DNA from: Promethearchaeota archaeon
Lineage (GTDB): Archaea; Asgardarchaeota; Lokiarchaeia; Sigyniarchaeales; SOKP01
Assembly (NCBI GenBank): GCA_019058365.1
Contig: JAHPZE010000009.1
Span: forward strand, 1 to 64,000
Direction: 5' to 3'
DNA: 64,000 bases
Under the pieces are notes generated by a model, which worked only from the letters and a program-made list of their open reading frames with translations, searched no databases and had not been told where the DNA came from. Position numbers and translations under genes: made by a program. Shown one piece after another: positions 29,691 through 33,034 of the stretch. How positions within the stretch are numbered: position 1 is the first letter of the stretch; every line of letters begins with the position of its first letter.

Positions 29691-30473
29691 TTATTCTAAA
29701 CGTTCTAACAATTCTCGAATTTTTTTCAATTCATCTAAACGTAACTCGCTTTTATTTATTTCTTTATGTTCTATTGAATTTTCAATTACAGAGGAAGTTT
29801 CCATCATTCTTATTCTTTCCCATATTGTTGCACGAATGAATTCTGATTGTGTTTGGTGCGAAAGTTGAGAAAATCGTTTAATTTCATTCAATTCATTGCT
29901 ATTAACTAAAAACTTAACTTGGATGCTTTTTTTTAAAGCTTTTTGAATAATAATAGGAAGTTGATTTAACAGATCTTCAACATTATCAGTCGATGTTAAT
30001 TCAATATAACCTATTAAACCTTCTTTTTTAACAAATTCTTTATATTTTTCCCTATCAATTGTTTCCAGTTTCTCAACTAAATCGCGTTTATTTCCAATTA
30101 AAAGTATAGGACATTTATCTTGTTTAATCTGATTCCAAACTTTTTTAAACTGTGTTTGATAATAGTCAAAAGTTTCTGGTTTAGATAAATCAAATACAAA
30201 AAAAATAGCTGATGCCCCAGTGTAGTATAGTGTTTGAAGTGAACCAAATTTATCATTCGCAATAATATCCCAAAACTGAAGTTTATAATCATGACCGTCA
30301 ATATTCACATTTTTAATAAAGAAGTTCACACCTACTTTTGGACCAGCATCTTCATGAAGAGATTTATCTGAAAACTGTTCAATTAATGTGGTTTTACCTA
30401 CTCCCGCAGCCCCAAGAACTACTATCTTAAACATTTCTTTATACTTTTCTTTACTTATTTTCTTTACCTCCAT
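29691..30473 (-). CDS. Rab-like GTPase fused to a C-terminal ribbon-helix-helix domain
   Basis: GAAGVGKTT, FWD and GNKRD, then IQVKFLV-NSNELNEIKRFSQLS-HQTQSEFIRATI. Confidence 0.8.
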   Translation of the reverse strand: MEVKKISKEKYKEMFKIVVLGAAGVGKTTLIEQFSDKSLHEDAGPKVGVNFFIKNVNIDGHDYKLQFWDIIANDKFGSLQTLYYTGASAIFFVFDLSKPETFDYYQTQFKKVWNQIKQDKCPILLIGNKRDLVEKLETIDREKYKEFVKKEGLIGYIELTSTDNVEDLLNQLPIIIQKALKKSIQVKFLVNSNELNEIKRFSQLSHQTQSEFIRATIWERIRMMETSSVIENSIEHKEINKSELRLDELKKIRELLERLE

Positions 30474-30495: not shown

Positions 30496-30564
30496 ATGTA
30501 CCGATCATGTACCTATAATTAAAAAAGAAATATTCCTTTATAAATCTATGTACTGAATATGTAC
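30496..30564 (-). promoter_or_regulatory. Promoter with four ATGTAC boxes (two 11-bp-spaced pairs) flanking TTTATAAA
   Basis: ATGTAC (+ strand) at 30496, 30507, 30548 and 30559. TATA at 30537-30544. Confidence 0.7.
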
Positions 30565-30673
30565 ATATACGATAGAATAAGAGAAAAAAACTCCTAACCT
30601 TTAAAATTAAAATATTCAATACTTTTACAAATATGTATGAAATTAAATATCGAGGATAAATAAAAAGGAAATG

Positions 30674-33034
30674 TTATATTGCAATATGTTCGGTTCTTCT
30701 AATAATCTCGTCCTGTAAATCAAGTCCTAAATTCACAAAATAGTCGCTATATCCCGCAACTCGCACTATTAGGTCTCTATATTTTTCTGGATTTTTCTGT
30801 GCAGCCCGTAAAGTATCTGCTGATACTACATTAAATTGTACATGATGACCATCCATTTCAAAATATGCTCTAATTAAATGAGCCAATTTATTAATCCTAT
30901 TTTCTTCTGAAAAAAATTGAGGAGCAAATTTTTGGTTTAGTAAGGTTCCTCCCGTTTTTAGATGATCAATTTTTCCAGCGGATTTAATAACTGCAGTTGG
31001 ACCATTAATATCCATGCCTTGAACTGGAGAGATGCCTTCTGATAAAGGAGTATAAGCCTTACGTCCATCTGGTGTGGCACCAGTTACTTGACCAAAATAA
31101 ACATGAACAGTAGTAGGAAGTAGATTAATACGATGTACACCACCTTTAGTATTAGGACGATTATCGATCGCGTTATAAACAATATTAAAAACTTGTGTAG
31201 TTATCGAATCAGCATAATCATTATCATTCCCGTATTTGGGAGTTTTATAAATTAATTTCTGTTGTAAAACTTCATTTCCAATAAAATCTTTATCTAAGGC
31301 TTTTATTAGGTCTTCCATAGATATTTTTTTTTTCTCAAATATATTATATTTTAAAGAAGCTAAACAATCTGTAATGCTACCCATCCCTACAATTTGTATA
31401 TATGAAGTGTTGTATTTGGCTCCACCATCATTGTAATCCTTCCCATTCTTTATACAATCATCGATTAATATTGAAAGGAAAGGGGCGGGATTTTGTGCCC
31501 AGATTCGTTCAATTATTTGATTTCCTTTAATTTTTATGTCTACAAAATGCTTAATTTGTTTTTTATAAGCTTTAAAGAATTCATCAAAAGTTTTAAAAGT
31601 TGTAGGCTCACCAGTTTTCAATCCAATCTGTTTTTTAGTTACAAGATCGAAACCATTATGAAGTGTGACTTCCAAAATTTTTACTAAATTAAAATATCCC
31701 GTTAGTATATATGCTTCTTTTCCAAAAGCACCAGATTCAACACAACCACTTGCCCCACCATTTCGGGCATCTACTATAGATTTACCCTGTCTAGTTAATT
31801 CTTGTATAATAGCATCGGTATTGAACACTGAAGGTTGACCAAAACCAGTTTTAACAATTTCAAGGGCTCTTTTTAAGAATCTATCGGGGGTCTTTGTACT
31901 AATCTGAACATTACTACTTGGCTGGACTATCCTCATTTCTTCAATTACATCTAATAACATGTAGGATACTTCATTGACTCCATCAGAACCATCCTCTTTA
32001 AGTCCGCCAATGTTAATATTACAAAAATCGGTATAAGTATTGCTCTCTTCAGCAGTTACTCCAACCTTTGGAGGAGCAGGTTGATTATTAAACTTCACCC
32101 AAAAAGCTTGAAGTAATTCATATGCATCTTCCTTGGTCAATATACCATTAGCAATATCATCTTTGTAAAATGGATAGAGATGTTGATCTAAGCGTCCAGG
32201 ATTGAAAGAATCCCATGTATTATATTCAGTTATAACACCTAAATGAATGAACCAATAGTGTTGGAGGGCCTCCCAGAATGTTCTAGGTGCCAATGCAGGA
32301 ACTCTAGAACATATCTCCGAAATCTTTTCTAATTCACTTTTTCTAATTGGATTTGCTTCATTTACAGCTAAAAATTTGGCTTCTTGAGCATGGCGTTCAG
32401 AAAAAGCAATTATCGCATCTGCAACGATAATCATCGCAGTTAGCTGTTCCCTCTTATCAAAAGCTTGAGGATCATTGAAAAAATCTAATTTTTCTATACT
32501 TTCTTTTATTTCGTTCTTAAAATCTAAAAATCCTTTATTCCATATGTTTTTTCCACCAACCGTATGTCCAGGTGCTCTCTGTTCCATAAACTCTGTGAAA
32601 ATTCCCGCTTCATATGCATCAATCCATTCATCATCAACTTGGGTGAAGATTTTATCACGAATAGATCTTCCTTTCCAAAAGGGAATAATTAGATCTGCTG
32701 TTTTTTGTCTTATATCTTCTGAAACTTTAAATGAAATTTTTTTACGGGTATTTAAAATCTCTAAATCTCGTAAACTATGGCAACAAACTTCTGGATATGT
32801 AGATGTAGCTTTTGGTTCTGGGCCACGTTCGCCGATAATTAACTCCCCTTTATTAATGCAGATCTTTTTATTTTCCATAATGTGCTTAAAAGCTTTAGCT
32901 CTCGCAATTGGAGCTGAAAACTTATGTGCAGCACCCATTTTATAAAACTCTGTCATTAATAAAGCACGTTCCAATGATATATAAGGAATTGCTTCACGAC
33001 TTTGTGTTCGTAGGTTTTTAATTCGTTCATTCAT
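30674..33034 (-). CDS. hypD: Glycyl-radical enzyme, trans-4-hydroxy-L-proline dehydratase
   Basis: EQRAPGH, WDSF, TYTDF, GCVE, YILTGY, LPTT and RVAGYS. Confidence 0.85.
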   Translation of the reverse strand: MNERIKNLRTQSREAIPYISLERALLMTEFYKMGAAHKFSAPIARAKAFKHIMENKKICINKGELIIGERGPEPKATSTYPEVCCHSLRDLEILNTRKKISFKVSEDIRQKTADLIIPFWKGRSIRDKIFTQVDDEWIDAYEAGIFTEFMEQRAPGHTVGGKNIWNKGFLDFKNEIKESIEKLDFFNDPQAFDKREQLTAMIIVADAIIAFSERHAQEAKFLAVNEANPIRKSELEKISEICSRVPALAPRTFWEALQHYWFIHLGVITEYNTWDSFNPGRLDQHLYPFYKDDIANGILTKEDAYELLQAFWVKFNNQPAPPKVGVTAEESNTYTDFCNINIGGLKEDGSDGVNEVSYMLLDVIEEMRIVQPSSNVQISTKTPDRFLKRALEIVKTGFGQPSVFNTDAIIQELTRQGKSIVDARNGGASGCVESGAFGKEAYILTGYFNLVKILEVTLHNGFDLVTKKQIGLKTGEPTTFKTFDEFFKAYKKQIKHFVDIKIKGNQIIERIWAQNPAPFLSILIDDCIKNGKDYNDGGAKYNTSYIQIVGMGSITDCLASLKYNIFEKKKISMEDLIKALDKDFIGNEVLQQKLIYKTPKYGNDNDYADSITTQVFNIVYNAIDNRPNTKGGVHRINLLPTTVHVYFGQVTGATPDGRKAYTPLSEGISPVQGMDINGPTAVIKSAGKIDHLKTGGTLLNQKFAPQFFSEENRINKLAHLIRAYFEMDGHHVQFNVVSADTLRAAQKNPEKYRDLIVRVAGYSDYFVNLGLDLQDEIIRRTEHIAI

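Follow-up and report, generated by a model that had tools for sequence, protein, structure and literature searches.

Arc and Mnt of phage P22 each place two RHH dimers on half-sites about 11 bp apart, on one DNA face and as a dimer of dimers, and both proteins autoregulate; Mnt uses a C-terminal coiled coil for tetramerization. The archaeal viral and plasmid RHH factors SvtR (SIRV1), AvtR (AFV6), and ORF56 (pRN1) bind at or near their own promoters and repress them. A further small archaeal RHH regulator is CdrS of haloarchaea (PMC7439475). In the ParG/OF system, each tetramer box takes up one RHH dimer, AT-rich spacers mediate cooperativity, and the protein's own operon is repressed (PMC3130281). 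In ParR/parC of plasmid R1, two sets of 11-bp repeats flank an autoregulated promoter, again with one RHH dimer per repeat (PMC2241845).

Here, we analyze a promoter with four GTAC boxes in a 64,000-nucleotide stretch of a Promethearchaeota genome (assembly GCA_019058365.1, contig JAHPZE010000009.1; hereafter, the window). The promoter precedes a gene for a 260-aa protein with a Ras-family GTPase domain and weak C-terminal RHH matches; a PFL-like glycyl radical enzyme is encoded next to it and a HAD hydrolase is a further neighbor (Table 1). A first-pass annotation of the sequence had proposed that the boxes are autoregulatory sites and that they provide a motif with which to map a regulon. 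We estimate a probability of about 0.8 that the four boxes constitute two operators for the C-terminal RHH module of the protein that the gene itself encodes. The operators are unique in the genome and conserved, they are co-inherited with the RHH module, and box and RHH strand covary among paralogs, all of which adds to the autoregulatory part of the proposal. The regulon part found no support.

Layout, conservation, and uniqueness of the promoter

The first-pass annotation located ATGTAC on the + strand at 30496, 30507, 30548, and 30559, with 11 bp from start to start in each pair, and these positions proved exact. It was likewise correct in reading 30558-30567 (TATGTACATA) as a palindrome and 30537-30544 as TTTATAAA, and its geometry holds, with one pair on the BRE side and the other over the expected start site. 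Across 32 related promoters, however, the conserved core is not the hexamer ATGTAC but the tetramer GTAC with a 7-nt spacer (consensus GTAC(A/T)T..TC.GTACAT). The four boxes thus form two 15-bp operators, each GTAC-N7-GTAC, which we designate distal (O_D; consensus aTaTGTAC.TATTCaGTACATA in the 32 promoters) and proximal (O_P). On the - strand, the 200-bp intergenic region reads T7 (30590-30584), GTACAT-N5-GTACAT, 5 nt, TTTATAAA, 24 nt, GTACAT-N5-GTACAT, 24 nt, and ATG; the TATA box is TTTATAAA, TTTATATA, or TTTAAATA across the related promoters. In archaea, the usual distance from the center of the TATA box to the start of transcription is about 26 nt. This geometry predicts a start near 30513-30515, such that O_P would span the start and the first ~15-17 nt of the leader. 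Since the T7 run is a likely terminator of the upstream PFL-like gene, the promoter below it would be independent. A scan of the region for bacterial-type promoters and terminators is uninformative for an archaeon.

Table 1. Features of the GTPase-RHH locus, in window coordinates unless indicated otherwise
Feature	Position	Strand	Comment
Gene for the GTPase-RHH protein	29691..30473	-	
Conserved C-terminal helix, residues 246-258, LRLDELKKIRELLERLE	29700..29738	-	Candidate contact between RHH dimers; putative role in oligomerization
RHH core, residues 181-231	29781..29933	-	Strand KKSIQVKFLV, helix 192-204, helix 209-231
Ras-family GTPase domain, residues 16-169	29967..30428	-	Pfam Ras, E = 1.2e-30
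Candidate start codon ATG (30473-30471) overlapping Shine-Dalgarno-like GGAGGT (30471-30466)	30466..30473	-	
Proximal operator O_P, GTAC-N7-GTAC	30498..30512	-	Boxes 30509-30512 and 30498-30501; begins 24 nt past TATA box
TATA box TTTATAAA	30537..30544	-	Putative role, from archaeal promoter knowledge
Distal operator O_D, GTAC-N7-GTAC	30550..30564	-	Boxes 30561-30564 and 30550-30553; 5 bp upstream of TATA box, overlaps BRE position
T7 run	30584..30590	-	Putative terminator of upstream PFL-like gene; T-run kept in ortholog alignment
Gene for PFL-like glycyl radical enzyme	30674..33034	-	
H(K/R)NG.YLEKPDEEE..RE.EK.KRKEEL locus	G000:C35:20518-20637		Outside window; also P0041, P0045, P0052, P0060

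In a whole-genome protein search, 13 further genomes of the genus yielded full-length orthologs with 58-80% identity. The first-pass annotation had named presence of the motif upstream of orthologs as a check, and the four GTAC cores and the TATA box are kept in 14/14 upstream regions. In a MAFFT alignment of the 14 orthologous promoters, mean column identity is 0.996 for the GTAC cores (15/16 columns invariant), 0.957 for O_D (12/15 columns invariant), 0.95 for the TATA box, and 0.924 for O_P, compared with 0.75 for the stretch from O_P to the ATG and 0.59-0.69 for the region upstream of O_D. Within O_P, the spacer varies among orthologs (atgatcg, ataataa, agaaaca) while the GTAC cores are fixed. 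This spacer (30502-30508) reads TGATCG here and TGATCA in two other genomes (G008 and G021); TGATCA is also the box of a paralog family described below, so a genome containing the two could be subject to cross-talk. In G006 and G009, the ortholog has another upstream neighbor but an identical cassette arrangement, which ties the cassette to the gene downstream of it rather than to the 3' end of the PFL-like gene.

The 11-bp spacing of GTAC-N7-GTAC is found in both pairs here and in 32/32 related promoters. The offset from pair to pair is 52 bp here, 50-54 bp in 28/32 related promoters, and 37-58 bp overall; therefore, only the spacing within pairs is strictly fixed. Conserved helical phasing between the two operators, which we had also entertained, was rejected in view of this range of offsets, and a phased loop between them finds no support in it.

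The genome scan for ATGTAC-N5-ATGTAC that the first-pass annotation called for yields two copies in the whole genome (4,739,778 bp; 29.5% G+C in 4.74 Mb), and both lie in this promoter. Chance would supply about 0.18 such pairs and about 2e-7 four-box arrangements per genome, and the arrangement of the boxes is not due to chance. The cluster is made more striking by the scarcity of GTAC genome-wide, at 6,525 copies versus about 12,800 expected from base composition alone, or about half. With a 23-nt weight matrix built from the orthologous pairs, the two sites reach 36.1 and 34.1 bits, whereas nothing else in the genome exceeds 16.9 bits, a level also seen in the reversed-genome control. The relaxed pattern GTAC-N7-GTAC occurs 14 times versus roughly 9 expected by chance. 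On inspection of the 12 sites outside this promoter, none lies in a recognizable promoter, and all but one or two are clearly within long open frames. We found nothing above chance that would amount to a regulon by weight-matrix scan, by a histogram of GTAC spacings, or among these 12 sites, and the composite motif described below occurs once per genome. The claim that the boxes give a regulon motif is accordingly not borne out, and the only visible target of the operator motif in this genome is the gene itself.

Co-occurrence of boxes and RHH module across genomes

To describe the whole cassette we used the composite pattern GTAC-N7-GTACAT-N33-40-GTAC-N7-RTAC, which is present exactly once per genome in 27/54 genomes of the genus and has 0 occurrences in the control with the pattern reversed. 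The gene downstream of it always ends in the module KK..QVKFL...SEFIR...ELKKIR, and what differs is the N-terminus. This can be a Ras-like GTPase (proteins of 255-260 aa), a GTPase enlarged by some 55 inserted residues (311-317 aa; L032, L041, L048), leucine-rich repeats (LRR; 417-455 aa; L034, L040, L052, L057, L058), or absent, leaving an RHH-only protein (130-152 aa; e.g., L054 and L062). Four of the LRR loci (L034, L040, L057, L058) have a leader ORF of 47-97 aa between promoter and gene, starting MTQMLLKKPEQEE in several. At the same chromosomal spot downstream of the PFL-like gene, the four-box promoter is followed, depending on the genome, by a GTPase-RHH, GTPase-insert-RHH, LRR-RHH, or RHH-only gene.

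The converse search employed a profile of the RHH module and is thus unbiased by the motif. The module was found in 33 genomes of the genus and a few others, and 32/32 loci of the genus or family with readable upstream DNA contain at least one GTAC-N7-GTAC pair. Six module loci had been missed by the strict pattern. Four of them (G065, G058, G002, G013) do have all four boxes but differ in offsets or flanking sequence, an LRR form (G061) has one intact pair and a decayed proximal pair (GGAC, ATAC), and one sits at a contig end. The complete cassette is also present at a GTPase-RHH ortholog from a second genus (G135). Conversely, the composite motif was absent from all 21 genomes of the genus that lack the module, and this genome holds a single copy of this type of RHH module. 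The 560 nt upstream of the 356-aa homolog in G074 (strand HQVKFLV) contain no GTAC box. Co-inheritance of promoter and gene is partly trivial, as the two are adjacent.

The family is found in 117/134 genomes of one family, in 3 further genomes of the same order, and in 0/246 genomes of the phylum's other families. In the source annotations, its proteins are GTP-binding or Rab family GTPases of Lokiarchaeota/Promethearchaeota. One genome has a second, apparently decayed LRR-RHH copy (L068; G069:C6:143900-144950), with the strand KQVKFVV and a degenerate GTAC-N7-GTGC pair in front of it. We also observed a recurring motif beginning H(K/R)NG (given in full in Table 1), which precedes the RHH in LRR, insert, and RHH-only forms, and follows it in N-terminal forms. 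The motif also exists by itself, as an ORF of about 52 aa, in most of the family's genomes, including the present one.

The module profile also detects small paralogs with an N-terminal RHH. Those with the strand (I/V)QIKFLV have GTAC boxes at an 11-bp period. A QIKFLV-type strand accompanies five GTAC boxes after a TATA-like TATTTAAATATATA in a genome of a different family (G026), four GTAC boxes on a metagenome contig of higher G+C, and one GTAC pair in G086. Genes of the RHH-only type in G077 and G080 encode the strand KQVKFLA and have one GTAC pair abutting the TATA box. Other strands go with other boxes. At 18/18 loci with the strand KF(I/V)K(I/V)M(V/L), there are three to five copies of TGATCA and no GTAC pair. 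These TGATCA paralogs (L077-L096; e.g., G012:C79, G024:C25, G023:C1) are N-terminal RHH proteins of 112-135 aa from 16 genomes, absent from this genome, and their boxes stand directly after a TTTAAATA box at a 9-bp period, or at 11 bp in the two FIKIML members. The strand KLIK(I/V)LV pairs with G(G/T/A)(T/C)CAT-type repeats at 11 bp, clear in L080 and L087 and partial, weaker, or seen by eye in L075, L076, and L091, and the strand KQITFWL pairs with three copies of TATAG at 11 bp. For L069 (strand QMTFLV), neither a start codon nor a repeat was found. Most paralog arrays lie past the TATA box and ahead of the start site, where repressors classically bind.

We also built a tree of the module with the strand residues left out. 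In it, the QIKFLV/GTAC genes belong to the N-terminal-RHH clade, where the TGATCA and GxxCAT types are their neighbors, and are separate from the fused QVKFL clade. By this placement, the same strand is paired with the same box in two deep clades, and changes of strand within a clade match changes of box. That paralogs with another β-strand carry other phased boxes is as expected if the RHH reads the boxes. Because the number of independent switches is only three or four, and this rather than the number of genomes is what counts, we take the covariation as good qualitative evidence and not as statistical proof. As a separate observation, one metagenome contig has a perfect 22-bp palindrome, TTAATTGGGTATACCCAATTAA (L100:520-545), just upstream of a gene for a distant NikA-like RHH protein with the strand NIQIKFFL.

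The RHH module and its fused domain

Pfam backs the RHH call of the first-pass annotation: NikA-like (best E = 3.5e-8) and DUF6290 (best 3.7e-7) match 19/19 modules, and RHH_1 matches 12/19. The window's own module, at 20.0 bits, is below the Pfam gathering score of 27; distant profile matches that exceed the gathering score are P0060 and P0062 (NikA-like, 32-33 bits) and P0067 (RHH_1, 27.6 bits). When searched against 1.84 billion proteins, the module profile reaches stand-alone RHH proteins. Invariant module residues are K16, K17, and Q20-L24 in the strand region and L79, E83, L84, I87, and R88 in the C-terminal helix.

An AF2 monomer model of the module (pLDDT 64) has an extended segment at residues 19-26, helices at 27-39 and 44-66, and a C-terminal helix at 81-93 (module numbering). 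Foldseek returned nothing significant with this model, and a PDB sequence search with the module profile gave no significant RHH entry. With VIA, solved structures of the RHH antitoxins MazE9 (6a6x_D) and nMazE6 (7wj0) aligned at Z 5.2 and 4.8, with rmsd values of 2.9 and 1.8 over 53 and 49 residues, respectively. Rv0298, TacA1, and MatP aligned as well, and all these alignments span residues 18-71 with Z of 4.4-5.2, a commonly seen level. We regard the structural support for an RHH fold as no more than moderate.

The GTPase domain was judged by alignment with three canonical small GTPase paralogs of the same genome. It retains the P-loop and NKxD. The position of the switch I Thr is mostly occupied by Lys or Arg; Ala, Asp, or Asn substitutes for the DxxG glycine, and Asn, Asp, or Glu for the catalytic Gln; SAK is replaced by TST. 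This pattern suggests that the domain probably binds nucleotide without the usual switching or hydrolysis.

The start of the coding region is uncertain. Orthologs start ATG AGT AAA after GAGGTGA, and the same codon here is ATA (30458-30456). The in-frame ATG at 30473 is the only ATG upstream of the ATA codon, and a 1-nt difference in this genome removes the stop that follows the upstream ATG in relatives. The true start codon could be ATG 30473, the ATA, or Met14.

Autoregulation, its alternatives, and known systems

The model we propose is a prediction from sequence with regard to binding, its stoichiometry, whether regulation is negative or positive, where transcription starts, and any nucleotide effect. 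In it, the antiparallel β-ribbon (Q-V-K-F-L) of a single RHH dimer would read each two-fold symmetric GTAC through the major groove. A pair of such dimers, spaced by 11 bp along one DNA face, would assemble as a dimer of dimers, two per operator, and the conserved C-terminal helix probably helps to tie them together. Occupancy of O_D over the BRE and of O_P over the predicted start would exclude TFB/TBP and RNA polymerase, and the net effect would be negative autoregulation. The N-terminal domain would serve as a variable input, a Ras-like GTPase here and LRR or nothing in relatives.

The sign at the distal site could be positive, in which case O_D would activate by recruiting TBP/TFB and only O_P would repress. 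Archaeal activators bind just upstream of BRE/TATA, which favors such dual control, and the G077 and G080 genes have just one pair, located directly before the TATA box. However, box 2 ends 5 bp from the TATA box and overlaps the BRE instead of lying upstream of it, and the position of most paralog arrays is a repressing one. We consider dual control unlikely, though well worth weighing.

A further alternative is that the boxes are operators of a different, unlinked transcription factor and that the RHH binds something else. As a palindrome, GTAC is so generic that it might be recognized by many dimeric factors, and the G074 homolog does without boxes. Yet a trans-acting factor would be expected to have other sites, and this genome has none; among paralogs the box shifts exactly where the RHH strand shifts; and the cassette tracks the RHH through swaps of the N-terminus and into other genera and families. 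On this evidence, an unlinked factor seems improbable.

It is still harder to see in the boxes a centromere-like or segrosome site of the ParR-parC or ParG-parH type, at which the RHH would mark DNA, the fused NTPase would have a mechanical or positional role, and autoregulation would be a by-product. The 11-bp repeats on both sides of the promoter do recall R1 parC, bound by an autoregulating RHH, the tetramer boxes resemble those of ParG, and an RHH is joined to an NTPase. But the locus is chromosomal, single copy, and located beside metabolic genes, and the NTPase is a Ras-like domain lacking switch and catalytic residues. Also against a plasmid-type partition site, there are only four boxes and no long array; the neighbors are the PFL-like enzyme and the HAD hydrolase, with no partner motor or ATPase gene found conserved nearby; and the GTPase is dispensable, being replaced by LRR or missing in relatives that keep the boxes.

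Least credible is an action at the RNA level (a 5'-leader hairpin of self-complementary GTAC) or as unusual core-promoter elements: the proximal GTAC pair can form a 4-bp stem and is probably transcribed, but we discarded an RNA element given the weak leader fold (-2.5 kcal/mol, z = -0.6, 44/200 shuffles as good) and the window's lack of any Rfam match, the distal pair is no less conserved and is located before the TATA box, the cores are invariant and hence show no compensatory change, and core-promoter elements would recur at other promoters, where none do.

Returning to autoregulation by the RHH module, we speculate that the locus belongs to a modular family of one-component regulators, in which a portable RHH with its own phased operator is combined with interchangeable eukaryote-like domains, the nucleotide of the window's GTPase gates DNA binding, and strand and box follow a code. 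We advance this broader reading tentatively, at somewhat less than even odds. If it is true, nucleotide-gated DNA binding would directly link a Ras-type domain to transcription, and the family would carry a readable strand-to-box recognition code (QxKFL/GTAC, FIKVM/TGATCA, etc.). To our knowledge, almost no Asgard transcription factor has a known DNA target. The predicted factor-operator pair comes with exact coordinates, a clear geometry on an archaeal TATA/BRE promoter, and natural specificity variants, and the fusion to a Ras-like GTPase (LRR in sister genomes) would offer a simple in vitro read-out for one of the many Asgard small GTPases. In our literature search, we came across neither a described GTPase-RHH fusion nor an RHH operator from Lokiarchaea. 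The survey of Asgard GTPase architectures that we searched has fusions to longin and roadblock and none to a DNA-binding domain.

Among described systems, ParG/OF and parH of plasmid TP228 share with this locus a 4-bp box per RHH dimer, AT-rich spacers, cooperative neighbors, and self-repression (PMC3130281), as the model would have it here. ParG, however, acts on 8-20 degenerate ACTC boxes with 4-bp spacers in mixed orientation, in contrast to four exact GTAC boxes with 7-nt spacers in two pairs. It is also bacterial and plasmid-borne and works with a separate ParA-type ATPase, whereas the present gene is on an archaeal chromosome, behind a TATA/BRE promoter, and has a fused NTPase-like domain; homology to ParG is at the level of the RHH superfamily only. 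In R1 ParR/parC, too, the promoter lies between sets of direct repeats of 11-bp period, but these number five plus five and have a centromere role with the actin-like ParM, as opposed to two plus two boxes here and no sign of partition.

The conserved C-terminal helix may tetramerize the protein in the manner of the Mnt coiled coil. Arc and Mnt differ in being small, stand-alone proteins with a single operator at a bacterial promoter, whereas here two operators surround an archaeal TATA box and the protein has a large N-terminal domain. SvtR, AvtR, ORF56, and CdrS have no Ras-like GTPase or LRR fusion and their operators differ; unlike them, the family in the window is almost confined to one Lokiarchaeal family. 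The cis-logic of the locus is of a known kind, that of ordinary RHH autoregulation, and what is new is the family itself, the geometry on an archaeal promoter, the interchangeable N-terminal domains, and the covariation of strand and box.
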